DNA from: an uncultured Verrucomicrobiae bacterium
Lineage (GTDB): Bacteria > Verrucomicrobiota > Verrucomicrobiia > Limisphaerales > JAFGQR01
DNA length: 64,000 bases
Assembly (NCBI GenBank): GCA_963788655.1
Contig: CAWBHS010000022.1
Location: 128,001 to 192,000 of the forward strand
Direction: 5' to 3'
This document shows positions 14,581 through 61,201 of this stretch, piece after piece. The position numbers were made by a program, and so were the translations under genes. The notes under the pieces are model-generated. The model did not search any database. It worked only from the letters and a program-made list of their open reading frames with translations, and was not told the DNA's origin. The stretch's first letter is position 1. Each line of letters opens with the position of its first letter.

Positions 14581-14591
14581 GATTTTGACCA

Positions 14592-14731: not shown

Positions 14732-14850
14732 TTTCAGAAACGCCACCATCCACACTTGTCGGCTTCAATGGAGACGCCGCAGAAAACCGAAATGTCCGCT
14801 TGCTTGCACCCATTCACGGCCTTACTGTCGCCTATTAGAAAACACATAGG

Positions 14851-16227
14851 ATGAAGCGTATGACCCGAAAATGGCAGATTCCCCGACGGACCTTCCTGCG
14901 CGGCCTGGGCGCGACGATGGCGTTGCCCGCGCTCGAAGCCATGGTCGCCCCAATCGACTTGCTGGCCAAGAACACCAACCACACCCACAATGGCAGCCAT
15001 CCGTTGCGCCTGGCGTTCGTGTATGTGCCCAATGGCGCGAACATGGCCGACTGGAAACCGAAAACGGAAGGCACCGATTTCGAATTGCCCTACATCCTCG
15101 AGCCGCTGAAACCGGTGCGGAACGAAGTGCAGGTGCTGACCGGACTGGCGCAGGACAAGGCGTTTCCGAACGGGGACGGCGCCGGAGACCACGCCCGGGC
15201 CAGCGCCACGTTCCTGACTGGCTGCCAGGCCCGCAAGACGGCCGGCGCGGACATTCACGTGGGCATCTCCGTCGATCAAGTCGCCGCGCAGCGGTTGGGC
15301 CGGTTGACACGGTTGCCGTCGTTGGAGTTGAGCACCGACCAGGCGCGGCAGGCCGGCGCCTGCGATTCGGGTTACAGTTGCGCCTATCAGTTCAACATTT
15401 CCTGGAGCGGCGAGAGCACGCCCTTGCCGCCCGAGGCCAATCCGCGACTGGTCTTCGAACGGTTGTTCGGCAACGATCGCCCGGCGGAAATGACCGAGAG
15501 CCGCGCCCGCCGGGAACACTATCGCCAAAGCATATTGGACCTGGTGCAGGAAGACGCCCGGCAGTTGAAGGCCCAACTGGGCCGCACGGACCAGCGCAAA
15601 CTGGATGAATATCTTACCTCCGTTCGTGAATTGGAACGGCGCGTGGAACAAGCGGAGCAATTCACTGCCTCCTTGCCGAACGCCACCAAGCCTGCGGGCA
15701 TCCCCCGCGAATACGAACGGCACCTCGAGCTGATGTTTGACCTACTGGCGCTGGGATTTCAAACCGACACCACGCGCATTGCGTCATTCATGATGGCGCA
15801 CGACGGCAGTAACAAGCCCTATCCGTTCATTGGCGTCTCTGAGGGGCACCACGACCTTTCCCACCACCAGAACAAGGAGGAGAAGAAACACAAGATTGCC
15901 CGGATCAATCATTTTCACCTCACCCAGTTCGCCCGGTTTCTGACCAAACTCAAAAGCATTCCGGAAGGCAACGGCACGCTGCTGGACCATTGCATGATCG
16001 TTTACGGCAGCGGCCTGTCCGACGGTAATCGGCACAATCACGACGACCTGCCCGTCCTCGTGGCCGGTGGCGGCGCCGGCACCTTAACGCCCGGCCGGCA
16101 CGTGAAGTTCAGCAAGACGCCGATGAACAATCTTTACCTGGCTCTGCTCGAACGGATGGGCGTCCCGACGCAACAATTGGGCGACAGCACTGGAATCTTG
16201 CGGGGTATTGGTCCGGAGCTGAGCTGA
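14851..16227 (+). CDS. DUF1552-family protein, Tat-exported
   Basis: PRRTFLRGLG Tat motif, FVYVPNG, SVDQVAA, PSLEL, CDSGYSCAY, HHDLSHH, GTLLD and GNRHNHDDLP. Confidence 0.92.
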   Translation: MKRMTRKWQIPRRTFLRGLGATMALPALEAMVAPIDLLAKNTNHTHNGSHPLRLAFVYVPNGANMADWKPKTEGTDFELPYILEPLKPVRNEVQVLTGLAQDKAFPNGDGAGDHARASATFLTGCQARKTAGADIHVGISVDQVAAQRLGRLTRLPSLELSTDQARQAGACDSGYSCAYQFNISWSGESTPLPPEANPRLVFERLFGNDRPAEMTESRARREHYRQSILDLVQEDARQLKAQLGRTDQRKLDEYLTSVRELERRVEQAEQFTASLPNATKPAGIPREYERHLELMFDLLALGFQTDTTRIASFMMAHDGSNKPYPFIGVSEGHHDLSHHQNKEEKKHKIARINHFHLTQFARFLTKLKSIPEGNGTLLDHCMIVYGSGLSDGNRHNHDDLPVLVAGGGAGTLTPGRHVKFSKTPMNNLYLALLERMGVPTQQLGDSTGILRGIGPELS

Positions 16228-44878: not shown

Positions 44879-46398
44879 GGCTCCGTGGCGAGCCGATTGG
44901 CCCGCGTTAAACTGGCGCTGGGATTGATGCTCAGCCGGTGAATTGATTCCATGGCTGCCAGGAATCCTTGCGCTTTGGCCAACGTCTCCTCGTATTCGGC
45001 TTCGGGACTCGAATCAGCGACGATGCCGGCACCCACGTGGAAATGTGCCGTGTGATTCCGCCACAACGCGGTGCGAATGATGATGCTCAATTGGCTCTCG
45101 CGATTGAATCCGAGGTAGCCGAGGCAGCCGGTGTAGGGCCCGCGGATGACCGGCTCCATTTCGTCAATGATCTCCATCGCGCGAATTTTCGGTGCGCCGG
45201 TAATGCTGCCGCCAGGAAAACCGGCGGCCAGCGCCTCGAGGTGCGTCAAACCCGACCGCAACTGTCCGGTCACAGTGGATACCAAATGCTGCACGTGCGC
45301 GTATCGTTCCAGGCGGACCAACTCGGGGACGCGCACCGAGCCGTATTCGCAGACCTTGCCCAGATCGTTCCGGAGCAGGTCGGTGATCATCACCAGCTCG
45401 GCCATTTCCTTGGGGCTGGTTTGCAGTTCATAAGTCAACTGTGCGTCCCGATCCGGATCGGCCGAACGCGGGCGGGTGCCTTTGATGGGCCGCGTCTGTA
45501 TGTGGGCACCGCTCATTTGAAGGAACAACTCCGGCGAAGAGGATGCCAATTCAAAATCTCCGCAGTTCAGGTAGGCGGCGAACGGTGCCGGCGAAACGTC
45601 ACTCAAGCAACGAAACAAATCCCAACCGCTGCCGTGACAGGCGGTGGTCAACCGCTGGGCCAGGTTCACTTGGTAAATGTCCCCGGCCCGAATGTAACGT
45701 TGAGCCCGTTCCACCGCCGCGACAAATTGCTCGCGGCTGAAAGTGGAAGAACAGGCCAGTTGATTTGGCCGGAACGCATCAGTTGCAAAGGGGAGCGCGC
45801 CCGCCTCGGGCGCCGTGGTTGGCGCCTCGCCAACCACCTTCGAGCACCCAAGTGGCTCACGATTCAGTAATCGGTGTCTCCAAAACTCCAATTGCTCGCG
45901 CGTGCGCCGTTCGCTACGGGCCCCGTCCGGCTGCAATCCGGTGGACACGATCCAGCTCTTGCCAAGGGCGTGATCGAACACCACGAGGCTGTCATAGAAT
46001 CCCAGATGACAATCAGGCGATTGCACGTCGTTGGCCGCGCCGCGGGGCAAACGAGGTTCGAGGAAACTTTTCAAATCGTAGCCCCAATATCCAAAGCACC
46101 CACCCAAGGGAAACGGCACATCGACTTCGTCCAGCAACTCAAAACGCCCCAGCAAGCCCTGCAGGATGGACCACGGATTGCCAAATTGAACGCTGCGTTC
46201 GCCTTCGAACGCCAACTCGCAACGCGCTCCAAAAGAGCGGAACATGAGCATCGGCCGCGCGACGACGAACGAATAGCGACCCTGCCCGGCATCTAGCCGC
46301 CCACTGCGCAACAAAACGATGCCCGGCTCACCTTGGAGCCGTTCCACCAGACTTTCAGGCGACAATGCACCCGACGCTTCCTGGATTATCGGCGGCAT
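44875..46398 (-). CDS. pabB: Aminodeoxychorismate synthase component I
   Basis: GDIYQVNL, SPAPFAAY, SSSPELF, TRPIKGTRPR, ELVMITDLLRNDLG, FPGGSITGAPKIRAM and GAGIVADS; adjacent to a pabC-like gene. Confidence 0.9.
   Translation of the reverse strand: MPPIIQEASGALSPESLVERLQGEPGIVLLRSGRLDAGQGRYSFVVARPMLMFRSFGARCELAFEGERSVQFGNPWSILQGLLGRFELLDEVDVPFPLGGCFGYWGYDLKSFLEPRLPRGAANDVQSPDCHLGFYDSLVVFDHALGKSWIVSTGLQPDGARSERRTREQLEFWRHRLLNREPLGCSKVVGEAPTTAPEAGALPFATDAFRPNQLACSSTFSREQFVAAVERAQRYIRAGDIYQVNLAQRLTTACHGSGWDLFRCLSDVSPAPFAAYLNCGDFELASSSPELFLQMSGAHIQTRPIKGTRPRSADPDRDAQLTYELQTSPKEMAELVMITDLLRNDLGKVCEYGSVRVPELVRLERYAHVQHLVSTVTGQLRSGLTHLEALAAGFPGGSITGAPKIRAMEIIDEMEPVIRGPYTGCLGYLGFNRESQLSIIIRTALWRNHTAHFHVGAGIVADSSPEAEYEETLAKAQGFLAAMESIHRLSINPSASLTRANRLATEP
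45791..45837 (+). repeat. Palindromic repeat family A, copy 3, in-frame inside pabB
   Basis: GGGAGCGCGCCCGCCTCGGGCGCCGTGGTTGGCGCCTCGCCAACCAC; the first 22 nt from 45792 are identical to the intergenic copy at 14592. Confidence 0.8.
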
Positions 46399-46546: not shown

Positions 46547-46882
46547 TGCACCGCAAAGACACGAAGAACTTGGCGCGGCAAAGCCGCAACCAATCGCGGG
46601 GTAGGGCGAGACTCCGTCGAGTCCATACTTCCCCGCATCGCTGCCGATAACCCGAGGACCATAACGCGGGAAGCCTACGGCGTTACGAACCCCAAGGAGT
46701 TCCCCTCGTTCATCACCCAGTCTGCGGAAGTGCTTCGGGGAGGTTAGGGCTCGACGGAGTCTCGCCCTACCTAACCGCTGCTGTTGGCAGGAATTTTCGT
46801 CGCCGCTCGCGATTAATTTGCACTGGTGCAGTGCAAAGACGCTCAGCTAAATCCTTTGCGCGCTTCGTGTCTTTGCGGTGCA
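46547..46882. repeat. Nested palindromic elements: an outer 20-bp IR enclosing a GTAG-type REP doublet (family E, copy 1)
   Basis: TGCACCGCAAAGACACGAAG (46547-46566) pairs with CTTCGTGTCTTTGCGGTGCA (46863-46882). Inside, GGTAGGGCGAGACTCCGTCGAG (46600-46621) pairs with CTCGACGGAGTCTCGCCCTACC (46750-46771). Confidence 0.85.
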
Positions 46883-47209: not shown

Positions 47210-49844
47210 ATGGCTCGGAAGGACTCCGGAAACCGCGCTCATCCTCGTGGCATGAGCGATATTATCGGCATCGTGCTGATCGCCCTGGCATTATTGCTTT
47301 TGGTGGCGCAACTGTCATTTGACCGTTACGACCTCGAAGCGAACCGTGTGCCGGTGAATCAGGCCGTGCACAATTGGATCGGCAGCGCCGGCGCGTTGGG
47401 CGCCAACCTGCTGTTCCAATTCTTTGGCGCCGCCGCATTTGTGCTGCCCTTGCTGCTGCTGCTGTTTGGCATCGGCTACCTGTTTGAATTCTTCGCCTAC
47501 TTGAAACGCCGCTGGTTCTGGGCGGCGGTGTTGCTGTTCTGTTCCCTGGGATTCTTTGACCTGTATTCGCACTTGCTGGAAGGGTTGCGCTACAATTTGA
47601 ACGCGCCCAGCGCCGGCGGTTACATCGGCAAGGCGATGAACGATTGGGTGTTTGGCCGATTTGGCAAGCCCGGCGCCACCATCATTTATGGCACGCTCTA
47701 CTTGATCAGCGTCATTTACCTGACCAACTTCCACCTCGGCGACTGGCTTCGAAGTTTGTTCCATCGGGAAACGAAACTGCCGGGCGAAGAACACTGGACG
47801 CCGGAGGAAAAAGTCCTTGCCCGCCGCGCCCGGGATTTGCAACGGAAGGCCTTGAAGTTGCAGGAAGAAATGGAGCGTTCAGGGTTGGGCGCGGATCTCC
47901 AACCCGTGCCGGTGCCCACCGTGCGCGATCTGAGCGTGCCCCAGCCGCGTTCCGATCGGAAATCGCGCGCGAAAACTCCCGAACCTGATTCCGAAACAGA
48001 CGGGGTTGAAGGGGAAATAATCCCCGCCGGCGAAGTCCGGGCCGCCTCGACCAAGGACATTCTGGGCGACCACGCAAAAACCAAACCGGACGCTCACGAA
48101 ACCAGCCCGGAAACCGAGCCCGAGGCCGAGCCCGCCGCGGCCGAATCCAAACCCACGCCGGCGGTGCCGATCAAGATCACCGACCAATCGATGGGCCGGC
48201 GCAGGCCGAAGAAGCCCAAGCCGATCACCGTCGCCGCGCACGCCGATGATCGGCAACTACCAGTTGCCGCCGATGGATTTCTTTCAATACCCGGACCAGA
48301 ACGTCAAACCGACCGAGTCCAAGGAGGAATTGATGGCCAACGCGCGGCTGATGCAGCAGACGCTGGCGCAGTTCGGCATCGAAGTTGCCCTGGGCGACAT
48401 CACCAAAGGCCCGACGATCACCCGCTACGAATTGCATCCCGGCGCCGGGCGTGAAGCTGGAAAAGATCACCGCGCTGAGCAACAACATCGCCGCCGCGCT
48501 CAAGGCCGAGCGCATTCACATCCTCGCGCCGGTGCCCGGCAAGAGTTCGGTCGGCATCGAGGTGCCCAACGCCGTCAAGACCAAGGTCATCATGCGCGAC
48601 CTGCTCGAGTCGGACGAATGGCGCAACACCAAGGCCCGCATTCCGCTGGCGCTGGGCAAGGACGTCTACGGCCATCCGATCATCGCCGACCTCGCGGACA
48701 TGCCGCACCTGCTGATTGCCGGCAGCACCGGCTCCGGCAAGTCGGTTTGCATCAATTCCATCATCGCCTCGCTGCTCTACCGGTTCTCCGCCCGACCAAC
48801 TCCGGTTCGTGATGATTGATCCGAAGGTCGTCGAGCTTGCAGCAATACAACCCCCTGCCGCACCTGGTCGTGCCGGTCGTCACCGATCCCAAGAAAGTCA
48901 TTCTCGCGCTGCGCTGGGTGGTGAACGAGATGGAGAAGCGCTACCAGATCTTCGCGCGAGTCGGCGTGCGCAACATCAAATCGTTCAACGACCGCCCGAA
49001 GAACAAACCCGCTGCCGCAGACCGGAACCGGAACTGCCGCTGACGCGCCAAGAAGGAAAAAGTGCGAACCCGGCGCCGAAGGCTTCGCGGTGGAAGTGGA
49101 CGAGGAAATCGTCGTGCCGCGCGAGGAAGACATCGTCATTCCCGAGAAGCTCAGCTACATCGTGGTCATCATCGACGAGCTGGCCGACCTGATGCTCGTG
49201 GCGCCGGCGGACGTCGAAATGGCCATCGCGCGCATCACGCAGATGGCGCGCGCGGCCGGCATCCATTGCATCGTCGCCACCCAGCGGCCGAGCGTGGACG
49301 TCATCACCGGCGTCATCAAGGCCAACATCCCGGCGCGCATCGCGTTCCAGGTGGCCGCCACGGTGGATTCGCGCACCATTCTCGATGCGATGGGCGCCGA
49401 CAAACTGCTGGGCAAGGGCGACATGCTTTACCTGCCGCCGGGCTCGGCCAAGCTGATCCGCGCGCAGGGCGCGCTCGATCACCGACCAGGAAATCCAGAA
49501 GCATCGTGGACTTCATCGCCAAGCAGGGCAAGCCCAGCTACGAGATGGAAATCCACCAGCAACTCTCCAAGCCGGCGCACGAGCTTCGAGAACGAGAGCG
49601 GCATCGACGAGGACGAGGACCTGATCCAGCAGTGCATCGAAGTCATTCGCAGCGAGCAAAAGGCCAGCGTCTCGCTGATGCAGCGCCGCTGCGCCTCGGC
49701 TACACCCGCGCCGCGCGCATCATGGATGAACTGGAGAACCGCGGCATTGTCGGCCCCAGCAAAGGCGCCGAGCCGCGCGACATCCTCATTGACCTCGACG
49801 GCACCGGCGCCGACGGCCTGCCTGCCAGCCAATCGCCGGCCTGA
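47210..49844 (+). CDS. ftsK: DNA translocase FtsK, 3' half broken by about 12 single-base indels
   Basis: 4TM N-domain (NWIGSAGA), [76 protein letters not shown] and gamma domain [14 protein letters not shown], spread over several frames. Confidence 0.92.
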
Positions 49845-50129
49845 CGAGGGCGCTATCCGGTTTTGGGTGCTCACAACTGGTACGGGCCGTGGGATCTCAC
49901 ACCGCTGCCGCCAAGATGGCCTTGACCGAGTGGAAGGAAAAGCACGCCCAAAACAGGAGAGATATCGCATTCTTCCAATCTGCGAACCATTGGCCATGGA
50001 TGGGCGATCTGAACAGGCGCGAGTATTGCAGCGAAGCTCAGGTGGAATTCTCATGGGTTGACGCCGCGCTGCCATTTGACGTAATCTGTTGACGTGAATG
50101 GGATTACCGATGGAGTTTCAATGGTTCAC

Positions 50130-51060: not shown

Positions 51061-51136
51061 TGCTCCGGGCGGAACCCTGCTGTCCCTTCTCTTTTACGCA
51101 TCTTGACCCCCAACCTGGAAGAAACAGGCTTTGTGC

Positions 51137-51343
51137 ATGAGACAAGTATTGATCCATGCGGGTGAAGACGGTTACTGGGTTGCCGAGTGTCCGAGCTTGC
51201 CGGGCTGCGTGTCCCAAGGGACCACCCGCGAAGAAGCAATCCGCAACATCAAAGAGGCCATCGAGGGGTATGTCCTGGTGCTCAAGGAGGATGGACCTCC
51301 AGTGCCTGAGGACAAACTGGATGCACTTTTTTTGGCGGTATGA
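51137..51343 (+). CDS. hicB: HicB-family antitoxin (cassette 3)
   Basis: EDGYWVAECPSLPGCVSQGTTREEAIRNIKEAIEGY; a candidate own promoter TTGACC-16-CAGGCT (51103-51130) lies just before the ATG. Confidence 0.9.
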   Translation: MRQVLIHAGEDGYWVAECPSLPGCVSQGTTREEAIRNIKEAIEGYVLVLKEDGPPVPEDKLDALFLAV

Positions 51344-51562
51344 GCACGCTGCCGCGTGTTTCAGGGCAGCAGGTGGTCGCGGCGCTGCCGAGCATAAGGC
51401 TTCCGGGTTCGCCGCCAACATGGAAGCCACATCATCATGCGGCGGGATGATCCCTTCGCCCAGACAGTAGTGCCCGCGCACCGCGAACTGGATCGGGGAA
51501 TGTTGAGAGCCATTCTCCGTCAGATCGAAATAAGTGTGGAAGAGTTTGTTCGCTTACTTTGA
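51340..51562 (+). CDS. hicA: HicA-family mRNase toxin (cassette 3), frameshifted at 51396-51397
   Basis: Removing one A gives MSTLPRVSGQQVVAALPSIGFRVRRQHGSHIIMRRDDPFAQTVVPAHRELDRGMLRAILRQIEISVEEFVRLL (GSH, VPxH motifs). ATGA overlap with hicB. Confidence 0.85.
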
Positions 51563-51567
51563 AATCT

Positions 51568-51690
51568 GGCCAACCAGGGCGATGGAACGTTGCGGCTTGT
51601 GGCTTTCACGAACTCAATCGCGGCAATTGCAGTGAAAAGGAGAGCACGCACACCCAGAGCGATGATAATCCGAGACTGCGCCGGTTGGCC
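51568..51690 (+). mobile_element. attC site 3, degenerate or truncated
   Basis: GGCCAAC (51568-51574) lies 5 nt after the hicA stop and complements the cassette's start core GTTGGCC. Another GTTGGCC is at 51684-51690, but the inner arms pair poorly. Confidence 0.5.
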
Positions 51691-51740
51691 CGCGACTGGA
51701 GCGTCACGTAACAGCGAGTGAAACCAATGCTCGAAAACTT

Positions 51741-51783
51741 GTGGGCGAGGCGCCAACCGTAGCGCCTGAGGCGGGCGCGCTCC
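51741..51783 (-). repeat. Palindromic repeat family A, copy 4
   Basis: Reverse complement GGAGCGCGCCCGCCTCAGGCGCTACGGTTGGCGCCTCGCCCAC. Confidence 0.75.
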
Positions 51784-51789
51784 GCAGGC

Positions 51790-52533
51790 TTAGTCCGACG
51801 GACCGGCATATCTTTGGCGCGCGGCTTCGAGGGACTGCGGGGTGCCGATGTCCAGAATCGTCCCCTGGATTCGATGGGCATAGACCGGCTCCCGCTGAAA
51901 CAGCCATTCGATGAAATGGCCGGGCGCCTCCGCGGAACCGCCCTGGGCCAGGTACTCGGATACGCGCGGCAATGTGCGTTGGGGAAACAGGTAAATCGGC
52001 GGCACGGCCAATTGGGTTTTTGGCTCACGCGGCTTCTCAGCGAATTCCAAGACGCGGTTGCGCTCGTCCAGCACGACCACTCCCGTGCGCCGAAGCCGTT
52101 CCGTGTCCGAGACAACGTGGACACACAGATGGCTGGTGGGGCAGGCACGAAAAGCGGAGGCCAATTCCATCAGCGGAAACTCGAGGATATTGTCCGCGGC
52201 CGTGACCAACAAATCGTCGTCAATCCTCGCCTGTCGCACGGCAAATTGTAGATCGCCGATGGCGCCGAGCCGGTCCTCGTTGCTGGTGGTGCCGTCATCG
52301 ATGAGCGTGATTTTCCGGGTGCCAACCCACCGCCGCCGCCAAGCTTCAAAGTGCGGCAAGAACCGGTGGTTGGTGATAAGAAAGACGTGATCGAGGGCGG
52401 GGATCGTTTCCAGTTGGCCCATCAAATGATCCAGGATGGTTTGTCCGCCCGCCTCGAGCAACGGCTTGGGAAAGTCCTTCGTCAACGGGTATAGCCTCGT
52501 CGCATAACCGGCTGCGAGAATAAGCGCTTTCAT
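51790..52533 (-). CDS. Sugar-1-phosphate nucleotidyltransferase (NTP_transferase family)
   Basis: MKALILAAGYATRLYPLT...PKPLL, DDGTTSNEDRLGAIGD, FAEKP and DIGT. ATG overlaps the kinase stop. Confidence 0.92.
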   Translation of the reverse strand: MKALILAAGYATRLYPLTKDFPKPLLEAGGQTILDHLMGQLETIPALDHVFLITNHRFLPHFEAWRRRWVGTRKITLIDDGTTSNEDRLGAIGDLQFAVRQARIDDDLLVTAADNILEFPLMELASAFRACPTSHLCVHVVSDTERLRRTGVVVLDERNRVLEFAEKPREPKTQLAVPPIYLFPQRTLPRVSEYLAQGGSAEAPGHFIEWLFQREPVYAHRIQGTILDIGTPQSLEAARQRYAGPSD

Positions 52534-53909
52534 AAGCGTCGCGCTCCATCCGCCGATTGGCACAGAAGAAAGCGGGCCCGCGCCGCGAGCTGGGGCTGGC
52601 GCCGGGCGTAGGCCGCTTGCAGTTCCGGCAGCGCGTGTCGGGCGGCGTCCGGTTCGGCCAAGGCCACGCAACACCCCCGAAAACCGGCCCCGCTAAATCG
52701 CGCACCGTAAATGCCCGGCGTATGGACCAGTAAGTTGTAAAGATCGAGCAAGGGCTGACTGCCACATTCGTAATTGTCGATCGAACTCTGCCCCGACTCG
52801 GTCATCAACTTTCCAAACCGGATCCAATCGCCCCCGCGCCAGGCGTCAATCCCGTCGTGAACACGCTGCATTTCCGTGAAGAAATGTTGGGCGCGCCGGG
52901 CCGGGGCGCCGCTCAGGCGTGAACGGTGCGCGGCGTATTCCTCAGGCCGCACGTTGCCCAGATAAGCGGATTCATCGGTGCGCCCGACGGCGTCGAGCAG
53001 AATCCGGGCAGCCGCAGCACATTCGGCAACGCGCTGGTTGTAGTCGGTGGCAATGACGGCCTGGGTCAATCCGGAAACCGCCAGCAAAATAGTAAACGGC
53101 GGCGCCTGGCCTTTCTCAATCCAACGGATGCCACGGTTGTCGCGCGACGCGAGGTCATCAGTTTCATTCGTTGGCGCCTCTGAACGTGTTTTGAACGTCT
53201 GTAAACCGGTAGCCACCGACGTAAGGAGGTGGATCTGTTGGTCGCTTGGCGTTGGCGAATTCGCCTCCTCATGTTGGCGGTTACCCTTTTGAAACGCGCT
53301 CTCAGCGAATGCGTGGCAATTGATCACTGTGAGTTGGTCGTGTCTGGACAGCAGGATGGCGGATTGATCCAGGATACCGTTCTTCAGACCGAGATACTCG
53401 TTTTCGACGGCTTGGTCCAAAACGATGTTATGCGCCGCGGACACTTCAAGCTGATTGAGATCTTCCAGCGCCAGCAGGTACGCCACGCCAACGCTTGCCG
53501 AAGAACTTAGCCCAACCTCGGGCAATCCACCGCTGGTGACACCGACCATGCCCTGCCTCAGTCGATTCCCGCGGCTCAGTACCTTGATCGCACCGCGCGC
53601 ATAATCTCCCCAATCGCCGAGCGGAGCGGTGGGGACGTGCGCGAGGGGAATGGTGATTTCGTTGGAATACGCCAGGCTGCTCAGTCGCACTTCGTCGGAA
53701 CCGGACGGGGCGTAAGCGAGATATGTCCCTCGATCGATGGCCATCGCGGTGACGGTTCCCAATTGATGATCGATGTGCGCACCCAACGGGCAAATCCGAT
53801 ACGGCGACCAGACCACCCGAACCAGTGCCGGCGCGATGCCGTATCGGTCGTGCATCGCCTGGCGAAGCTGGCTCAAAGTGTCCGGTTGATCCATCGCGCT
53901 GTCTCTCAT
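52530..53909 (-). CDS. GHMP sugar kinase, galacturonokinase (plant GalAK)-like, with a ~60-aa insertion
   Basis: PYRICPLGAHIDHQ, GLSSSASVGVAYLLALE, ENEYLGLKNGILDQSAILLS, YNQRVAEC, SSIDNYECG and GARFSGAGFRGCC. GAHIDH replaces the galactokinase GEHxDY. Confidence 0.85.
   Translation of the reverse strand: MRDSAMDQPDTLSQLRQAMHDRYGIAPALVRVVWSPYRICPLGAHIDHQLGTVTAMAIDRGTYLAYAPSGSDEVRLSSLAYSNEITIPLAHVPTAPLGDWGDYARGAIKVLSRGNRLRQGMVGVTSGGLPEVGLSSSASVGVAYLLALEDLNQLEVSAAHNIVLDQAVENEYLGLKNGILDQSAILLSRHDQLTVINCHAFAESAFQKGNRQHEEANSPTPSDQQIHLLTSVATGLQTFKTRSEAPTNETDDLASRDNRGIRWIEKGQAPPFTILLAVSGLTQAVIATDYNQRVAECAAAARILLDAVGRTDESAYLGNVRPEEYAAHRSRLSGAPARRAQHFFTEMQRVHDGIDAWRGGDWIRFGKLMTESGQSSIDNYECGSQPLLDLYNLLVHTPGIYGARFSGAGFRGCCVALAEPDAARHALPELQAAYARRQPQLAARARFLLCQSADGARRL
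53209..53284. repeat. GTAG-type REP doublet inside the kinase coding sequence
   Basis: GTAG-CCACC-GACGTAAGGA-GGTGG-AT (53209-53234) and a degenerate inverted copy ATTCGCCTCCTCATGTTGGCGGTTAC (53259-53284). Confidence 0.75.
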
Positions 53910-54844
53910 TTCCGCCGCCGCATGTCCACGTAAACCGCGCCCAGGATCACGCCGCCCTTGACGATGTATTGCAGCGAATAATGGACGCCGGCCTGGTTTA
54001 AACCCTTGTCCAGAATGCCAATGATGATGGCCCCCAGCAACGTGCCGTAAATCGTGCCGCGCCCGCCGGTGAAACTGGTGCCGCCCACCACCGCCGCGGC
54101 AATGGCGTGCAATTCGAACATCACTCCGGAGGCCGGCTCAGCGGAATACAACTGCGAGGCGTTGATCATGCCGGCCACGCCGGTCAGCAGCGAGCAAATC
54201 ACATAGACCAGGATTTCAATGCGGGCGACGGGAATGCCCGTGAATCGCGCGGCTTCGCGGTTGCCGCCGATGGCATACAGGTGTTGCCCGAACCGCGTCC
54301 GGTGCAGGAGCACAGCCGTCAAGGCAAACAGGCCAAGCATCACCACCACCGGCACGGGTATCACTCCGAATAACCGGCCATTGCCCAATGCCAGGAACAC
54401 CGCCTGGCTATCGGGAATGTGCATGGGCCGGCCCTCGTTGTACCGCAACGCGGCCCCGCGCGCGATCAGCATGGTGGCCAGCGTGATGATGAAGGGTGGC
54501 ATGGGGGTCCTCGCGGCGCACACGCCGTTCATCAACCCCAGCAATGCGGCCACTGCCAATCCCGCCGGCACGGCCAGCCACAGGCCGAGCCCCGTGAGAC
54601 CGGTCGTCAGGAAATAGACAGTTGACGTGCCCACCAACGCCAGCAATGCCCCCACCGATAAGTCAATTCCCCCGCTCAGAATCACCAACGTCATGCCGTA
54701 CGCCAGGATGGCGTTGATCGAGATTTGTTGGGCCAGGTCCAGCAAATTGATGGGATGCAGGAAATTGGGCACCCACAGCCGGAACAGTCCCAGCAGTACC
54801 GCCACTGCAATCAGCAGCGGCAACATTCGTTTATACGTTCTCAT
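53906..54844 (-). CDS. Monosaccharide ABC transporter permease (RbsC-like)
   Basis: GMTLVILSGGIDLSVG, PPFIITLA, YAIGGNREAARFTGI and ELHAIAAAVVGGTS. Confidence 0.95.
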   Translation of the reverse strand: MRTYKRMLPLLIAVAVLLGLFRLWVPNFLHPINLLDLAQQISINAILAYGMTLVILSGGIDLSVGALLALVGTSTVYFLTTGLTGLGLWLAVPAGLAVAALLGLMNGVCAARTPMPPFIITLATMLIARGAALRYNEGRPMHIPDSQAVFLALGNGRLFGVIPVPVVVMLGLFALTAVLLHRTRFGQHLYAIGGNREAARFTGIPVARIEILVYVICSLLTGVAGMINASQLYSAEPASGVMFELHAIAAAVVGGTSFTGGRGTIYGTLLGAIIIGILDKGLNQAGVHYSLQYIVKGGVILGAVYVDMRRRK

Positions 54845-56392
54845 CCAGGGATGCTCCGGTCAGTTGTTCCATGACGCGTTCGGGCGTGTACTCAGTCGCC
54901 TTGCCCAGCTTGAGGATTCGGCCTTCCCGATAAACGGCGATCCGATGTGACAAGTTCAGGACTTCGTTCAAATCCGAAGAAATCAGAATTACCGCGATCC
55001 CCGACGCCACCAGTTTGGCGATGAAGGAAAAGATTTCTTCCCGCGCGCCAACATCGACGCCGCGCGTGGGTTCATCGAGAATCAGCACACGTGGCGGATG
55101 TTCCATCCAACGGCCGACCAAAACTTTTTGCTGGTTGCCGCCCGAGAGGCTGTCCACCGGTTGCTCGGGATCGGCCAACCGAATGGCAAAATTCCGCACC
55201 GCCCGGTCCACGATGGCGGCGCGTCTTTTGTGATTCGGCGTGCCAGCCGGCGATCCAGTCCCGCACCCAGGGCAAAGCGATGTTAAAGGCCACCGACTGG
55301 CAGACGACCAGGCCCTGCAGTTTTCGGTCCTCCGGGATCAAGACGATGCCGGCCTGCAACGCCTCCGCCGGCGAGGCAATCTTGACGGCCTTGTCCTGAT
55401 CGCAGGATTTCGCCGCTCTCCAAGCGGTCGATGCCGAAAATGGCCCGGGCCAATTCGCTGCGTCCGGACCCGACCAAGCCGGCAAAGCCAAGAATTTCCC
55501 CGGCGCGCAATTGGAAACTGACGTTGCGCACTTTTGCATTGGTCAGGTTCTTCACCTCCAGAACGATGTCTCCCGAAGCCCCGGCGGGGCGATGGAAATG
55601 GTCGGCGATTTCGCGTCCCACCATCCAGCGTACGAGCTCCTGTTGGTGCAATTGGCTGGTCGGTTGGGTGCCGATGGATTCCCCATCCCGCAATACCGTG
55701 ATGCGGTTAGCCAGGCGGATGATTTCTTCGAGGCGGTGCGAGATGTAAATGATGCCCACGCCCTGTTCTCGCAACCGTGAAAGCGTGGCGAACAGGATTT
55801 CGGTCTCCGTCTCGGACAGCGAGGACGTGGGTTCGTCCAGCACGAGAATGCGCGCCTGGCAGGACAATGCCCGAGCAATTTCGACCAGTTGCTGGTGAGC
55901 CACGCTCAGGGTGGAGACGTCGGCCCGCACATCGCGGATTTCGGTCAGGCCGAGCCGATTGACCAGTTGGCCGGCCTCCGCAAATATTTGACGCCGATCC
56001 AGAAACCCAAAGCGTCCCGGTTCGCGACCCAGATAAATGTTTTCCGCCACGGAGAGATTCGGGGCCAGGGACAATTCCTGGTGAATGATGCGGATGCCGT
56101 AGCGGTCCGCATCGCCGACGCCGTAAATGGACGCCGGTTGGCCATTGATAACGATCGCACCTGCGTCGGGCCGATGAATGCCGCCGAGCACTTTGATGAG
56201 GGTGGACTTGCCGGCGCCGTTCTCACCGAGCAATGCGTGGATTTCCCCAGCCTGCAACTCGAAGTCCACGCCCTTCAGAGCCTGCACACCGCCGAAGTAT
56301 TTTTTGACGCCCCGCAAGCGGAGCAGAGTGTCGGGTGCCGTTCGAGTGCAGTCGAATTGGGGCATGCTGATTGGTGGTCTAGGATTGGCCAT
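54831..56392 (-). CDS. Monosaccharide ABC transporter ATPase (RbsA-like), frameshifts near 55402 and 55245
   Basis: GENGAGKSTL, LDEPTSSL, ISHRL, GLVGSGRSE, IPEDRK, LSGGNQQKV and DEPTRGVDVGA across three frames. Start is ATG 56392 or 56365. Confidence 0.9.
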
Positions 56393-56430
56393 CAGCAATC
56401 GTGCTCCCGGCAGCAAATGGAGCACTGGAA

Positions 56431-56924
56431 CGTGCTGCCGGCATCCTGCCGGCAGAGCGAACGGAGCAAGCCAAGGCGAAGGGTATTGTTTGAGTTCGAG
56501 CGCACCTTTCGTGATCCGTTTCTGCCGGCGGGACGCCGGCAGCACGTTGCTCCAGCGTGCTGCCGGCATCTTGCCGGCAGGTCGGACGGCGCCAGCCCAA
56601 TCGAAGGGTATTGTTTGGTTCGAGCGCACCCTTCGTGATCGTTTCTGCCGGCGGGACGCCGGCAGCACGTTGCTCCAGCGTGCTGCCGGCATCTTGCCGG
56701 CAGGTCGGACGGAGCCAGCCCAATTGAAGGGTATTGTTTGGTTCGAGCGCACCCTTCGTGATCGTTTCTGCCGGCGAGACGCCAGCAGCACGTTGCTCCA
56801 GCGTGCTGCCGGCATCTTGCCGGCAGAGCGAACGGCGCCAGCCCAATCGAAGGGTATTGTTTGGTTCGAGCGCACCCTTCGTGATTGTTTCTGCCGGCGG
56901 GACGCCCGCAGCACGTCGCCCCAG
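56431..56924. repeat. Tandem array of four ~123-bp units, each a palindrome doublet (BIME-like)
   Basis: Units start at 56431, 56556, 56679 and 56802: CGTGCTGCCGGCATC(T/C)TGCCGGCAG ...conserved linker... TTCTGCCGGCG(G/A)GACGCC..CAGCACG. Confidence 0.92.
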
Positions 56925-57046
56925 CGAATGGAGCAAACCATATCCAAAGTTAATACTCGGTCGTTCGCATACACCGACTCGGTCCCTGCCAAGTTCCGTA
57001 AAGTATTACCGTGCGCAACGCACTGCAGGTCGTCGATCCTCGCGAA

Positions 57047-57190
57047 GCGTTTGGAGTGCGTGGAGCTTGCTCCCGCTTTTGGTTTGGTACGACAAAACAA
57101 CTTGCTGCCGTGCCGCGCGAGAAAAACTCGACCCTTGCGGTTTCGTTCGAAAGCGCCGGCAAGCCGGGCGCACTCCAAACGCTGGCGCGA
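57047..57190. repeat. Palindromic repeat family B, copy 2
   Basis: GCGTTTGGAGTGCGTGGAGCTTGCTCCCGCTTTT and AAAGCGCCGGCAAGCCGGGCGCACTCCAAACGCTGGCGCG match the halves at 6063-6170. Confidence 0.8.
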
Positions 57191-57273
57191 CTTAGCTTCC
57201 GCGGTTGCAATATCGGCGCCAGCCACGTGTCGGAATGTAACAAACCAACTTCTGCCCGTTTTCCCATCGCAGC

Positions 57274-58224
57274 TCATTGCTTGAGGAATTCGTCGGCATT
57301 CGTTGCAGTGATCAGTTTGACGGGCACCTTGACGTTTTTGGGAATCGTTTTGCCGGCCAGGTGCCCATAAAATTTCTCGGCGGCGATGCGCCCAATTTCC
57401 TTCGGGAATTGGGCCGAGGTCGAATACAGCTTGCCGGCCTTGATGGCCGCGATGCCTTCCTGCGAACCATCGACCGTCACCACGGTAACGTCCTTCAGCT
57501 TGCCCGCCGATTCCAAGGCGGAGATGGCTCCCAATGCACTGGGATCGTTGATCGGAAACACGGCATCAAGGTCGGGAAACCGGCCCAACAAATCCCGCAT
57601 GACCGGCCGCGCGCCTTCAGTGGTGCCTTTGCCTTCCTGGATGTCCTGGATCTTGAGTCCGGGATGCTTGGCAGCTTCCTCCTTGAATCCGGCGACGCGG
57701 TCAATGCATGCTTTGTTCACGGACAAGTGCAGGATCACCACTTTGGCGTTCGGCTTGACGGTGGCCAGCGCCCGCGCGGCTAATCGACCCGCCTCGAGAT
57801 TGTCGGAAGCCACCTGGCACAGCACGAGATCTTCCTCCTTAACTGGCGCGTCCACAATGATGCACGGTACGTGCTGGTTCTTCGCCTGGAGCAACGTGCC
57901 TTTAATGCCTTCCCAGTTCACCGGGTTGATAAACACGGCGGCGGCGCCTTGCATGATCACGTCGGAAATGTCGTTCTTCTGTTTGAGACTGTTGAATTGC
58001 GCATCGAGGGTGACCAACCGATCACCGTGGGCCTCGACCACTTCCTTGAGCCCCTGGTTCAAGTCGATGAAGAACGGATTATTCATCGTCTGGTATGACA
58101 CCGCCAGGAGACGACTTTGGGTTTTCGTGTCGCTGGAAGCGGCAGAATTGGTTTCCGTTTTGCCGCAACCGAAAGCAAGAGCCAGCAGACCCATGGCGGC
58201 GAAGTTTAGAATGTTGTGCTTCAT
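57274..58224 (-). CDS. Sugar ABC transporter substrate-binding lipoprotein (RbsB-like)
   Basis: Lipobox AFGC, TMNNPFF, VASDNLEAG, DRVAGF, NDPSALGA, VDG and AQFPKEIG. Confidence 0.93.
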   Translation of the reverse strand: MKHNILNFAAMGLLALAFGCGKTETNSAASSDTKTQSRLLAVSYQTMNNPFFIDLNQGLKEVVEAHGDRLVTLDAQFNSLKQKNDISDVIMQGAAAVFINPVNWEGIKGTLLQAKNQHVPCIIVDAPVKEEDLVLCQVASDNLEAGRLAARALATVKPNAKVVILHLSVNKACIDRVAGFKEEAAKHPGLKIQDIQEGKGTTEGARPVMRDLLGRFPDLDAVFPINDPSALGAISALESAGKLKDVTVVTVDGSQEGIAAIKAGKLYSTSAQFPKEIGRIAAEKFYGHLAGKTIPKNVKVPVKLITATNADEFLKQ

Positions 58225-58279
58225 TGGTTGGTTATCTCACCGTGCTTTCTCCGTTGTTTCAATCGGAAACCGTGGTTTC

Positions 58280-58395
58280 GTAGGACAGGCGTCCCGCCTG
58301 TCCCGGACTTTCCGACAACTCTGAATTGTTGCGAGATGTTTGCTGGCGCAAGGTGCGGTTCTGGTCATTCGGGACAGCCGGGACGGCTATCCTAC
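58280..58395. repeat. GTAG-type REP doublet, family C, copy 2
   Basis: GTAGGACAGGCGTCCCGCCTGTC (58280-58302) and the inverted GACAGCCGGGACGGCTATCCTAC (58373-58395). Confidence 0.85.
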
Positions 58396-58408
58396 TCGCC
58401 CTCGGCGC

Positions 58409-59530
58409 TCAGTTCTCAGCTTCCAGTATCGGCTCCAGCAGCCGCAGAAACGCCCGCGCCTGGCGCATGAATCCCAGGTCGGTCGGGTGCGATCCGTCCA
58501 CGGTGTCCTCCCCATCGCGGCCCAGCAGCAGTTCACCGGGCAGGTAGTAGAGTCCTTTCACGCCGTTGGCTTCGAGACGTCCAAAGGCGGCTTTCAACGC
58601 CACGCGGTCCTCGAGGTTGCGTTGCGCGCGAGCCGGTTTGAAAAACGCGTCACCATAAGTCCGGTCTTCGACCAACAAGATCGGCGTGTCAGGATGCGCC
58701 GCACGCAATCGCTGCACAAACGGTTCGACCCGTTCCGTCACCATCGCGCCGTCCATATTGGGCAAGCAATCGAGGATGAAGACCGCCGGATCCAATTCCG
58801 CCAGCAGATCGGCCAGGGGCATTTCCATTTTGCCATTGCCCGAAAAACCCAGGTTGATGACGGGTCGGTTCAAGGCCCGTCCCACAATAGCGGTATGCAC
58901 CATTCCCGGACGACTGGCGCAGCCGCCTTGAGTAATCGAGGTGCCATAAAACACCAGGGGACGCCGATAGCCGGGCGGCCGCGCCGGGGCTTTGGACATG
59001 GTGGCGTCGGACGGGATGCCAAGCTCGACTTGCGAAACGCCGTTATACAGCGGGAGGTAAAGCCAGAATTCCCGCGGCTCGCGGGCGACACCCTCGAATA
59101 ACCGAACGGTGTTCGTTTGGCCGGTGGGTTTGCCATTGGCCACCCAACGCCACGAACCATCCGGTTGATGTACGTAAAGATCGACGCCGCTGACGCCGGT
59201 GGCTGGCATGTGCGTCATGGCCAGGTTCTTCGAAGTCAACACCCAGTGGGCCGTCAACTCAGGCGTATCCGTCACAAACCGCGCGCTCAACCCAGCGCTG
59301 TGATGACTCAAACTCCACACAGCGGGAGGGACATTGGTGGCGGCTTTGCTGGGCAGCCGGTCGTACGGTCCCGGTGTGTCGGTCCAGCCTTTGCCTTCGA
59401 GGTCCAGCAAGGTCAAATCGTAATAACGAAGTTTCCCGTCCTGTCTGGCCTTTTCCACCGGCAACGGTTCGGCAGCCGGAAGTTGGGCGACGACGAAAAG
59501 AACGGTGACGAACAAGATCAGCTTGTGCAT
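58409..59530 (-). CDS. Exported SGNH/GDSL esterase with a GxDLY N-terminal domain
   Basis: GVDLY, FYGTSITQGGCASRPG, NLGFSGNG, LDCLPN and DGSHPTDLG. Confidence 0.9.
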   Translation of the reverse strand: MHKLILFVTVLFVVAQLPAAEPLPVEKARQDGKLRYYDLTLLDLEGKGWTDTPGPYDRLPSKAATNVPPAVWSLSHHSAGLSARFVTDTPELTAHWVLTSKNLAMTHMPATGVSGVDLYVHQPDGSWRWVANGKPTGQTNTVRLFEGVAREPREFWLYLPLYNGVSQVELGIPSDATMSKAPARPPGYRRPLVFYGTSITQGGCASRPGMVHTAIVGRALNRPVINLGFSGNGKMEMPLADLLAELDPAVFILDCLPNMDGAMVTERVEPFVQRLRAAHPDTPILLVEDRTYGDAFFKPARAQRNLEDRVALKAAFGRLEANGVKGLYYLPGELLLGRDGEDTVDGSHPTDLGFMRQARAFLRLLEPILEAEN

Positions 59531-59784
59531 GGCGCGAATTTACGAACATACCGGCGCGCGCGGAAGGCTATTCTTGCCAGCATGACGCCATGGGAAATCC
59601 GAAGGCCGAAACCCGAGATCCGAATTGATCTGGCTCGGCGGAGACGTTTTCCGCGTTCCCTCGCAATAGGAACTCCATCGGCTTCGGTCTTCGGATTTCC
59701 TTTCGCTTGCGCTGGCCGCTTGCTCACCATACCATCCCGCCTCCTTTGAATTGAAATTGGTTTATTGAGCAAAAGTTACGAAAT

Positions 59785-61005
59785 ATGGCTAGTTTGAAAG
59801 GCAAAGCTTTAGTGGCGCAGGGTGGTGGTCCGACCGCGGTGATCAATCAATCGATGGTGGGCGTGGTCCTCGAAGCGCGGCGTTATGCGCAGGTAACCGG
59901 GGTGTATGGCGCGCTGAATGGCGTCAGCGGTATTCTCAAGGAAGAATTCGCCGACCTCAGTCAAGAGACGCTGAACAATCTCGAACACGTGGCCAGCACG
60001 CCGTCATCGGCCCTGCTGAGCACGCGCGACAAGCCGGACGCGGAATATTGCGCCAAGATTTTCAAAGTCCTGAAAGCGCACGACGTCCGTTATTTCTTTT
60101 ACATCGGTGGCAACGACAGTTCCGACACTGTGCGAATCGTCAACGAGCACGCGCACCAGGACGGGTATGAGATGCGCTGTGTCCACATTCCCAAAACCAT
60201 TGACAACGACTTGGTCGAGAACGATCACACTCCCGGCTATCCGTCCGCCGCGCGCTTTGTAGCCCAAGCCTTCATGGGGGCCAACCTCGACAATCGCTCA
60301 CTGCCGGGCGTTTATTTGGGCATCGTCATGGGACGGCACGCCGGCTTTTTGACCGCCGCCAGCGCGTTGGGACGCACGTACCCGGACGATGGTCCGCATC
60401 TCATTTATGTGCCGGAACGGCCGTTTGATACCGATCAATTCGTGGCGGATGTCGATGCCACCTACCAGAAATATGGCCGTTGCATTATCGCCGCGAGCGA
60501 AGGCGTGACCGATGCCAAGGGAACGCCGATCATAACCAAGCTCATGGAGAACGTGGAAAAGGATGCCCACGGCAACGTGCAGCTCTCGGGCACCGGCGCG
60601 CTGGGCGATTTGCTGGCCGAAGAAGTGAAAAAGAAGCTGAAGATCAAGCGCGTGCGGGCGGACACGCTGGGCTATCTCCAACGCAGCTTCATGGGCGTGG
60701 TTTCCGACGTGGACCAAAGCGAAGCGCGCGAAGTCGGCGAGCGCGCCGTACACTTCGCCGTGACGAAGGACGTGGACGGTTCGGTGGCCATCAAGCGCAC
60801 TGGCAATTATTCGGTGGATTACGAATTGGTCGAGCTCACGAAAATCGCCGGCAAGACCCGTCACATGCCCACCGAGTTCATCAACGAAAAAGGCAACGAC
60901 GTCACCGACGCTTTCGTGACTTACGCTCGGCCGTTGCTCGGCAGTGATCTGCCGCGGCCCTACATCATCCGGGCGCCACGCGTGGCCAAAGTGTTGAACC
61001 AGTAG
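59785..61005 (+). CDS. 6-phosphofructokinase family, probably PPi-dependent
   Basis: QGGGPTAVIN, IGGNDS (Asp at the PPi-determining position), PKTIDND, MGR and LGYLQR. Confidence 0.9.
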   Translation: MASLKGKALVAQGGGPTAVINQSMVGVVLEARRYAQVTGVYGALNGVSGILKEEFADLSQETLNNLEHVASTPSSALLSTRDKPDAEYCAKIFKVLKAHDVRYFFYIGGNDSSDTVRIVNEHAHQDGYEMRCVHIPKTIDNDLVENDHTPGYPSAARFVAQAFMGANLDNRSLPGVYLGIVMGRHAGFLTAASALGRTYPDDGPHLIYVPERPFDTDQFVADVDATYQKYGRCIIAASEGVTDAKGTPIITKLMENVEKDAHGNVQLSGTGALGDLLAEEVKKKLKIKRVRADTLGYLQRSFMGVVSDVDQSEAREVGERAVHFAVTKDVDGSVAIKRTGNYSVDYELVELTKIAGKTRHMPTEFINEKGNDVTDAFVTYARPLLGSDLPRPYIIRAPRVAKVLNQ

Positions 61006-61029
61006 ACCAAGCCGTATCAATTCAGTTGG

Positions 61030-61201
61030 GGTAGGGCGAGACTCCGTCGAGCCCTGACTTCTTCACGTCGCGTTCGAAGACACGAACCCGATCAAGGGGA
61101 AATCCCTGACATTCGAACCGCCAAAGGCTTTCCGCGTTTGCGGTTTAGGGCATTCGAAAACACCTCAGGGAAATCAGGGCTCGACTGAGTCTCGCCCTAC
61201 C
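61030..61201. repeat. GTAG-type REP doublet, family E, copy 2
   Basis: GGTAGGGCGAGACTCCGTCGAGCCCTGA ... TCAGGGCTCGACTGAGTCTCGCCCTACC; same arms and same 172-bp span as 46600-46771, with a different interior. Confidence 0.88.

Follow-up and report, generated by a model that had tools for sequence, protein, structure and literature searches.

A candidate bacterial galacturonate-to-NDP-galacturonate module behind a CUT2 sugar importer

Can a bacterium activate free galacturonic acid directly to a nucleotide sugar, and is this what the operon described here does? The question is raised by five genes on the minus strand of a 64,000-nucleotide stretch of DNA (the window) from an uncultured Verrucomicrobiae bacterium (GenBank assembly GCA_963788655.1, contig CAWBHS010000022.1, positions 128,001 to 192,000). 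An earlier note, made from the letters of the window, had described these genes as an operon that imports a uronic acid and activates it with a plant-type galacturonokinase (GalAK) and a nucleotidyltransferase (NT). Our analysis suggests that the core of the operon, the kinase and the NT, is likely a bacterial galacturonate-to-NDP-galacturonate module (NDP, nucleoside diphosphate) that lies behind a sugar importer of the CUT2 family of ATP-binding cassette (ABC) transporters. We put the probability of this reading at about 0.6. The genes, in the order in which they are read, are the following.

57274-58224, minus strand: gene for a CUT2-family periplasmic sugar-binding protein (316 amino acids, aa; N-terminal signal and cysteine, by eye a possible lipoprotein)
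54831-56392, minus strand: gene for an RbsA/AraG-type double ABC ATPase (three frames; alternative start at 56365)
53906-54844, minus strand: gene for an RbsC-like CUT2 ABC permease, intact (312 aa)
52530-53909, minus strand: gene for a GHMP sugar-1-kinase of the GalAK family (459 aa)
51790-52533, minus strand: gene for a sugar-1-phosphate NT (247 aa; PF00483)

All five products match the expected families in family scans, with E values from 1e-10 to 1e-47, so the genes are not chance open reading frames (ORFs). The ORF that holds the NT gene spans 51790-52674, and the conserved start MKALILAAG corresponds to the ATG at 52533. Neighbouring genes overlap at three junctions: by 14 nucleotides (nt) between the stop of the last ATPase frame at 54831 and the permease ATG at 54844, by 4 nt (ATGA, 53906-53909) between the permease stop and the kinase ATG, and by another 4 nt (ATGA, 52530-52533) between the kinase stop and the NT ATG. 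Because the ends of the ATPase, permease and kinase genes overlap, we expect these genes to be transcribed, and probably translated, together. The five co-oriented genes with overlapping ends that had first drawn attention to the locus are all present, with three overlaps, but frameshifts in the ATPase gene and a long spacer behind the binding-protein gene had been missed.

What kind of kinase is encoded here? The protein carries the GHMP domains PF10509 (E = 1.9e-10), PF00288 (8.5e-10) and PF08544 (6.8e-09), all above gathering scores. Against the galactokinase (GalK) equivalogs of NCBIfam (TIGR00131, NF003705 and others) it stays below every curated cut-off, with 170.6 versus 226.65, 175.2 versus 385, 156.2 versus 443, 154.2 versus 499 and 128 versus 509, and its signature reads GAHIDH, not the GEHxDY expected of GalK. 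The top solved relative is human GALK1 (E = 3.4e-34); a sequence search of the structure database returned no GalAK structure among the kinase's solved relatives.

Homologues are plentiful. Among 8000 scored candidates at least 2970 proteins reach E ≤ 0.001, the nearest of them bacterial, and the 120 homologues listed include 31 that JGI names galacturonokinase, 4 that JGI names galactokinase and 1 that NCBI names galacturonokinase. An exhaustive search of 1.84e9 representative proteins yielded 349 at E ≤ 1e-30. Third among the best 150 listed is P0208, a galacturonokinase of the tea plant Camellia sinensis (E = 8.8e-99), which, in a search for its own homologues, is surrounded by named plant galacturonokinases. 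Pairwise, the kinase aligns to P0208 over its full length with 328 bits and 42% identity, versus 135 bits and 27% identity to P0342, a GalK of the GEHTDY type; the plant side of this comparison consists of named galacturonokinases, with the experimentally characterised Arabidopsis protein not among them.

The signature residues tell the same two types apart. They were compared in an alignment that sets three plant GalAKs, the window kinase and a pair of its bacterial homologues against P0342 and E. coli GalK. The GalAK type reads GAHIDH where the GalK type reads GEHTDY, NGILDQS where it reads CGIMDQ, SSIxNYE where it reads S(L/M)RDD(Y/F)E, and GFRGC where it reads GFGGC. All of 120 close homologues from bacteria contain the patterns GAH[IV]DH and G[AG]GFRGC, as do 118 of 120 plant proteins. 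Compared to human GALK1, the kinase has an alanine (A44) at Glu43 and an arginine (R411) at the glycine of GFGGC, and it retains the Asp, Arg and Tyr of the catalytic site, including the tyrosine aligned to Tyr236, which we take to read the C4 hydroxyl in GalK and GalAK alike. The glutamate-to-alanine change reportedly faces C6 of the sugar (Yang et al. 2009), and the arginine of motif III would be compatible with a carboxylate. At about aa 203-268 the kinase carries a low-complexity insert of some 60 residues, which is shared in position with other verrucomicrobial members and differs from theirs in sequence. The ESM Atlas, queried with the kinase, returned generic GHMP/galactokinase clusters only and was of no help in placement.

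A maximum-likelihood tree (IQ-TREE, LG+G4, quick search, SH-aLRT support only; 114 rows and 397 columns) covers E. coli GalK and the window kinase, together with 22 of its close homologues from bacteria, 8 plant proteins that carry names and 82 representatives of full length. Only representatives of 360 to 480 aa with a G.H.D. motif were used, and the tree, which includes no algae, is rooted on a single outgroup. The window kinase falls into a clade of 23 rows (SH-aLRT 97). The plant proteins form a clade of 9 rows with support 100, which comprises the 8 named proteins and the unnamed representative P0219. Both clades lie inside a clade of 37 rows (support 98) that is nested in a large bacterial radiation, and E. 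coli GalK and P0342 stand beyond a branch with support 100.

Judged by its sequence, the assignment of the kinase to the GalAK type and not to the GalK type holds. This bears out what the earlier note had proposed from the strings PYRICPLGAHIDHQ, LGLKNGILDQSAILLS, SSIDNYECG and GARFSGAGFRGCC, all of which are exact in the kinase translation: that the motifs fit plant GalAK better than GalK. The 42% versus 27% identity, the tree and the scores below the GalK cut-offs all agree with it. Homology search and phylogeny, which the note had named as checks, group the kinase with plant GalAK and away from GalK, and E. coli GalK, which would have spoken for canonical GalK had it joined the clade, lies outside. 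Its label "plant-type" fares less well: the kinase does share a clade with plant GalAK, but the family is overwhelmingly bacterial and the label misleads.

Relatives of the kinase occur in at least 586 species genomes (one genome per species) from six or more phyla. The best 80 of these loci, which form our sample of gene neighbourhoods, come from Verrucomicrobiota, Latescibacterota, Planctomycetota (including the cultured Tautonia sociabilis), Gemmatimonadota, Sumerlaeota, Chloroflexota, Armatimonadota and KSB1. The closest of them is 56% identical at the kinase, and the window's own genome is not among them. As far as the sampled proteins go, the kinase family is mainly bacterial, with the plant clade inside it. 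The plant galacturonokinases (P0208 and P0356-P0474) make up one tight clade nested among bacterial sequences, a hint at a bacterial family as the source of the plant enzyme. To our knowledge, plant GalAK has until now been treated as a plant invention.

What does the second enzyme add? The NT matches PF00483 with an E value of 1.8e-26 over residues 2-242 of 247 (profile positions 1-242 of 245), and its N terminus, LAAGYATRLYPLT, contains the expected N-terminal G-x-x-T-R loop. Among solved structures it comes nearest, at about 1e-12, to RmlA-type pyrophosphorylases, of which 3HL3 (1.8e-12) is the best match overall, and to GDP-mannose pyrophosphorylases. It does not resemble the plant USP/SLOPPY type: in Pfam the NT hits PF00483, PF12804 and PF01128 and nothing else, and general Pfam scans of 36 + 14 window proteins list no family of the UDPGP type. 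Plant UDP-sugar pyrophosphorylase belongs to this large UDPGP-type pyrophosphorylase family and measures roughly 600 aa.

Longer relatives of the NT, 86 in number, give a further indication of its chemistry. More than half (47/86) are fused to an epimerase/dehydratase domain of the short-chain dehydrogenase/reductase (SDR) type, and two of these carry the JGI name UDP-glucuronate 4-epimerase. Fusion partners of others are UDP-glucose 6-dehydrogenase (two proteins, of which P0145 reaches 546.7 bits with the Ugd model), aldose 1-epimerase (two) and an IF-2B/MtnA-like domain (six). A single one (P0185) is fused to a GHMP kinase, which is not GalAK-like (28 bits versus the window kinase). These partners would place the subfamily in UDP-hexose and UDP-hexuronate chemistry.

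The pairing of the two enzymes is conserved beyond the window. In 42 of the 80 loci the gene that immediately follows the kinase gene, in the same orientation, encodes an NT; at least 700 nt of downstream sequence are available in 74 of the 80. The NT is of the window type in 32 loci (43-68% identity) and of a different type, NTP_transferase+Hexapep, in 10 loci, all from Chloroflexi. Two NT lineages have been recruited to the same position, which argues that the pairing is functional. Neighbourhood genes were called with a home-made caller. Its first version, based on a greedy choice of the longest ORF, lost the kinase in 18 of 80 high-GC loci and was replaced by a score of GC content by codon position; because this caller also missed genes (e.g., the NT of locus L002), the NT counts rest on tblastn.

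Other neighbours point to an acid sugar. The genes of a tripartite ATP-independent periplasmic (TRAP) transporter, dctPQM, adjoin the kinase in 5 of the 80 loci; in Tautonia sociabilis (locus L039) they have the orientation of the kinase gene and are separated from it by 3 nt. A UxuA-like dehydratase gene occurs in 16 loci and the tagaturonate epimerase UxaE in three. Since TRAP systems transport organic acids and both UxaE and UxuA act in the breakdown of hexuronates, the context fits an acid-sugar substrate.

From this evidence we propose the following mechanism. Free D-galacturonic acid would be phosphorylated at C1 by the kinase with ATP; we think it probable that the kinase acts on galacturonic acid. 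The NT would then condense galacturonate-1-phosphate with a nucleoside triphosphate, for which UTP is our best guess, and release pyrophosphate. For this step the odds are a little better than even that galacturonate-1-phosphate is the substrate. The resulting NDP-galacturonate might enter glycan synthesis or nucleotide-sugar interconversion. In this lineage the co-transcribed ribose-type CUT2 importer may supply the sugar; elsewhere TRAP or other systems could do so. The link between importer and module is specific to this lineage. Of this picture, the families of the proteins, the order and overlaps of the genes and the conserved kinase-NT pairing are shown by the data; what both enzymes act on, which nucleotide is used, where the product goes and what the importer does are inferred.

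Several of our results weigh against this reading, at the enzymes, in the neighbourhoods, at the importer and in the sequence itself. At the kinase, the searched literature describes no characterised bacterial member, and at 42-48% identity to the plant enzymes the specificity could differ. One could also argue that kinase and NT act on another sugar altogether (glucuronate, another hexuronate, galactose or arabinose) and that GalAK-like motifs mark a broad subfamily only. The GAHxDH group is indeed large and diverse. The A..H signature is found in 108 of the 150 best representatives, and the third motif varies (R in 50, G in 32, K in 8 and N in 3), which suggests several specificities. However, the window kinase is of the R type and shares its subclade with the plant enzymes, and its four signature strings are identical to theirs bar one variable position. 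It also keeps the tyrosine aligned to GALK1 Tyr236, to which we ascribe the C4-hydroxyl role. Glucuronokinase is a different GHMP family with almost no shared identity (PMC2823444). We consider it unlikely that the pair acts on a different sugar.

At the NT, the scores fall below all NCBIfam equivalogs among UDP-glucose pyrophosphorylases (AglF/GalU), RmlA, mannose-1-phosphate guanylyltransferase and MurU: 76 versus 400 for AglF, 60.1 versus 320 for RmlA-long, 46.6 versus 250 for MurU and 33.2 versus 327 for GalU. The best of these models, AglF, is an archaeal UDP-glucose pyrophosphorylase, and the fused relatives suggest UDP-glucose chemistry as much as uronates. In the neighbourhoods, 38 of the 80 loci have no NT adjoining the kinase. 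In 13 loci, mostly from planctomycetes (among the 13 are L010, L013, L024, L031, L056 and L060; e.g., L060:9480-10652), a protein of about 390 aa lies beside the kinase and takes the place of the NT of other phyla, often followed by a 3-keto-disaccharide-hydrolase-like (PF06439) gene. This protein has no Pfam or NCBIfam match and no solved relative at E values up to 1; the ESM Atlas suggests a divergent Gfo/Idh/MocA oxidoreductase.

The neighbourhoods also raise the possibility of a catabolic entry similar to the Leloir pathway instead of salvage. Polysaccharide degraders might convert galacturonic acid via galacturonate-1-phosphate and NDP-galacturonate to NDP-glucuronate and onward. Recurring neighbours in relatives are degradative: sulfatases, GH95, GH127, GH116, a glucuronyl-esterase-like hydrolase and SDRs, next to the UxuA-like and UxaE genes. 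The SDR fusions of the longer NT relatives would suit such a route as well, and in one relative (L080) an epimerase gene lies immediately upstream of the kinase gene. The window operon, in contrast, has no epimerase, decarboxylase or other onward enzyme. Such a route would also spend ATP and UTP for intermediates that the classical isomerase pathway gets free, and the UxaE and UxuA-like neighbours show relatives that already have conventional hexuronate catabolism. We rate a catabolic role as quite improbable, and salvage by the kinase and NT remains our preferred interpretation.

Does the importer belong to this salvage module? Its three components have the domains of a CUT2 system, PF13407 (4.5e-47), PF02653 (6.5e-46) and, on the pieces of the ATPase, PF00005; the AraG, RbsA and YtfR models cover the ATPase. 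Specific assignments are weaker. The binding protein reaches 149.9 bits on the NCBIfam RbsB model versus a cut-off of 337, and the permease 265.1 bits on the RbsC model versus 398. Among solved structures the binding protein comes closest to ribose-binding proteins (2IOY, 4.8e-42, and the E. coli ribose-binding protein, RBP, about 1e-35), and when the E. coli RBP is mapped onto it by alignment, 9 of 11 ribose-contact residues are kept. The two pocket changes are R90 to A126 and F164 to K199. Because the contacts made by Arg90 and Phe164 are changed, the binding protein, to judge by its pocket, is probably not an orthodox ribose binder.

It is conceivable that the ABC system is simply a ribose- or pentose-like importer that came to lie upstream of the module by recruitment or juxtaposition in this lineage, has nothing to do with uronic acids and leaves the kinase-NT module standing on its own. 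In that case the operon would not be a coherent import-and-activate unit. Several observations speak for this. The window-type importer is not beside the kinase in any of the 80 loci: none has a homologous binding protein, and ATPase or permease matches occur in only 5 loci, at least 5 kb from the kinase and with 28-34% identity. Some relatives have a CUT1 ABC system in place of CUT2, and others the TRAP carboxylate transporter. RbsC and RbsA of E. coli are 42-47% identical to the window proteins, the nearest solved relatives of the binding protein bind ribose, and an 881-nt, repeat-filled spacer separates the binding-protein gene from the rest. On the other side, the ATGA overlap of permease and kinase and the overlap of ATPase and permease imply joint transcription and probably joint translation, the binding protein is far under the RbsB cut-off, and of the two pocket positions that differ from true ribose binders one has become a lysine. 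CUT2 binding proteins that accept uronic acids also exist, for example ChvE of Agrobacterium. Hence we take an unrelated importer seriously, at somewhat less than even odds, and find it doubtful that the importer carries galacturonic acid.

This also changes how the operon of the earlier note can be read. Of the uronic-acid import that it had claimed, the overlaps that tie the permease to the kinase in the window stand; the absence of the importer beside the kinase in 80 of 80 loci, the ribose-like binding protein and the broken ATPase do not support it. Of the coupling of kinase and NT, which it had suggested checking through conservation of the neighbourhood, the NT as next gene in 42 of 80 loci is upheld and the 38 loci without one limit its reach, and the same check finds the importer beside the kinase in none.

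The ATPase lacks the intact frame expected of a CUT2 importer, as its sequence is spread over three colinear frames. E. coli RbsA aligns by tblastn in frames -1 (56332-55358), -2 (55374-55255) and -3 (55244-54849), and positions 10-318, 316-359 and 371-492 of the NCBIfam AraG model map to the three pieces. The two frameshifts lie at about 55358-55374 and about 55244-55255. The ORF at 55283-57277 opens with about 295 codons of translated spacer; the true start of the ATPase is the ATG at 56392 or at 56365, so the binding-protein gene lies 881 nt upstream of the ATPase gene. This spacer (56393-57273) contains the following feature.

56431-56926, no strand: tandem repeat of 4 x 123 bp with GC-rich hairpins

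Tandem Repeats Finder describes the array as period 123, 4.0 copies and 93% matches; it holds the repeat families D1 and D3. Each 123-bp repeat carries GC-rich hairpins, e.g. CTGCCGGCA...TGCCGGCAG, and the repeats may affect mRNA stability or the ratio of the binding protein to the rest of the operon.

The ATPase is not the only broken gene here. About 5 kb away, ftsK (window 47210-50061, plus strand) is fragmented into at least four ORF pieces, and E. coli FtsK aligns in frames 3, 1, 2, 3 and 1 across 48264-49386. The stretch from 48 to 50 kb has an unusual AT skew of 0.215. With breaks in both the ATPase and ftsK, this stretch is either poor sequence or decaying. If it is decaying, the importer would be a pseudogene and the entire unit would have lost its function, an explanation to which the two uncompensated ATPase frameshifts, the many frames of ftsK and a nearby hicA-like ORF without its first 11 profile positions would lend themselves. 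However, ftsK is normally indispensable and yet broken many times, which suggests local sequence errors. Furthermore, the segment between the two ATPase shifts keeps its conserved residues and is 47.5% identical to RbsA. None of the other four products (binding protein, permease, kinase, NT) is truncated, and each has every invariant residue of its family; the four genes read intact, as do the genes in the first 44 kb of the window. We think that local sequence error explains the breaks in ATPase and ftsK more readily than decay, and a decayed locus seems to us rather improbable. Programmed frameshifting and an alternative genetic code were considered for the ATPase breaks and rejected: both shifts go in the same direction and are unmarked, and the nearby ftsK is far more broken.

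Three further genes lie next to these five.

58409-59530, minus strand: gene for a secreted SGNH/GDSL esterase (PF14606, 1.3e-61; PF14607, 4.2e-45)
51107-51343, plus strand: gene for a HicB-like antitoxin (PF15919, 1.5e-09)
51398-51562, plus strand: gene for a HicA toxin (PF07927, 1.7e-14; first 11 profile positions missing from the ORF)

The esterase gene lies 185 nt upstream of the binding-protein gene in the same orientation and may or may not belong to the unit; a GDSL esterase is also found two genes upstream of the kinase in the relative L061. The hicB/hicA pair on the opposite strand converges on the end of the NT gene and bounds the unit downstream. A scan of 51400-59900 for promoters and terminators was uninformative, with 1 promoter-like site (2.2 expected) and 8 terminator-like sites (10.6 expected).

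Farther away, the window encodes a PSD/PSCyt-domain protein with a CBM60 module, a DUF1552 partner and a DUF4838 protein (12181-16227, plus strand, and 8656-10482, minus strand), as well as a sulfatase (21970-23493). This content is typical of polysaccharide-degrading Planctomycetota and Verrucomicrobiota and is in keeping with the kinase, whose nearest relatives are verrucomicrobial. Two intergenic places 14.4 kb apart, 46598-46675 and 61028-61105, share a 78-nt direct repeat (72% identity; it begins GGGGTAGGGCGAGACTCCGTCGAG), and a second short repeat is found at 14592-14631 and 45792-45831. Both are probably copies of a dispersed intergenic element of the lineage.

How far could the module reach beyond this genome? 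One could argue that the kinase-NT pair is a widespread and so far unstudied pathway of bacteria, encoded in 586 or more species genomes of Verrucomicrobiota, Planctomycetota, Latescibacterota, Gemmatimonadota, Sumerlaeota, Chloroflexota, Armatimonadota and others. It would turn free galacturonate into an NDP-sugar through a small RmlA-like pyrophosphorylase, independently of UDP-glucose dehydrogenase and 4-epimerase. Plant GalAK would be a branch of this family, possibly bacterial in origin, and in polysaccharide degraders the pathway may even serve as a Leloir-like entry for uronic acids. We offer this broad view tentatively and would at present lean against it.

If the more restricted reading, a galacturonate-activating module of kinase and NT, is true, then bacteria have a direct galacturonate-to-NDP-galacturonate route that textbooks give to plants. 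This would change how envelope glycans that contain galacturonic acid can be fed in hard-to-culture phyla that degrade pectin and other polysaccharides. It would also provide compact bacterial enzymes for the one-pot synthesis of UDP-galacturonate, and give the plant salvage kinase an origin within a large bacterial radiation. In practice the weight of this is moderate, as the enzyme family is known, the proteins are already labelled automatically and nothing is mechanistically unprecedented. A full-text search, with most subscription journals outside its coverage, turned up no publication about a bacterial galacturonokinase or an operon of this kind. This agrees with the earlier view that the route is not characterised in bacteria, but the pipelines of JGI and NCBI already name such bacterial proteins galacturonokinase.

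Compared to GalK of the E. coli galETKM operon (L081), the window kinase has the same GHMP fold and domains, the same active-site Arg, Asp and Tyr and, as predicted, the same anomeric phosphorylation of a galacto-configured sugar. It differs in its low identity (27-29%), its changed motifs and its scores below every GalK model cut-off. Unlike in the Leloir operon, the next step would be taken by a pyrophosphorylase-type NT and not by a GalT-type uridylyltransferase.

The importer resembles E. coli RbsABC (L083) in its three components and its double-ATPase type, with 31% identity to RbsB, 44% over 316 aa to RbsC and 42-47% to RbsA. In contrast to RbsABC, its components stay below the equivalog cut-offs, two pocket residues of the binding protein are changed, the binding-protein gene comes first, followed by a long repeat-bearing spacer, and the ATPase is frameshifted. 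There is also no ribokinase or pyranase gene; a GalAK-type kinase follows instead.

Other salvage pairs of a kinase and a nucleotidyltransferase are AmgK-MurU of Pseudomonas and Fkp of Bacteroides. Zebrafish DrGKUP, a glucuronokinase fused to a bacterial-type pyrophosphorylase domain, is described in PMC3938481, and pairs or fusions of kinase and pyrophosphorylase are known for other sugars (PMC3938481 and PMC2823444). The proposed module would share with DrGKUP, AmgK-MurU and Fkp the path from free sugar to sugar-1-phosphate to NDP-sugar and the short NT of bacterial type; the window NT even matches the MurU models, if weakly (46.6 bits versus a cut-off of 250). Their kinases, in contrast, belong to other families.

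The closest parallel is galacturonic acid salvage in Arabidopsis, where GalAK (At3g10700) is followed by the UDP-sugar pyrophosphorylase SLOPPY/USP (At5g52560; PMC8636097). Both routes would have two steps, a sugar-1-kinase and then a pyrophosphorylase. The kinases are of the same family, with 42% identity and a shared tree clade, and the window kinase has PYRICPLGAHIDHQ, LGLKNGILDQSAILLS and GARFSGAGFRGCC identical to the plant galacturonokinase. The second enzymes differ: the window encodes a 247-aa, RmlA/GalU-like transferase of PF00483, whereas the plant one is a UDPGP-family protein of about 600 aa. The window genes, in contrast to those of the plant, form an operon with translational coupling, are bacterial and are linked to an importer, and the kinase carries its insert of about 60 residues. 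Hence the enzyme family and the plant pathway are already known; new would be a bacterial, operonic activation of galacturonic acid that appears to use a different pyrophosphorylase family.

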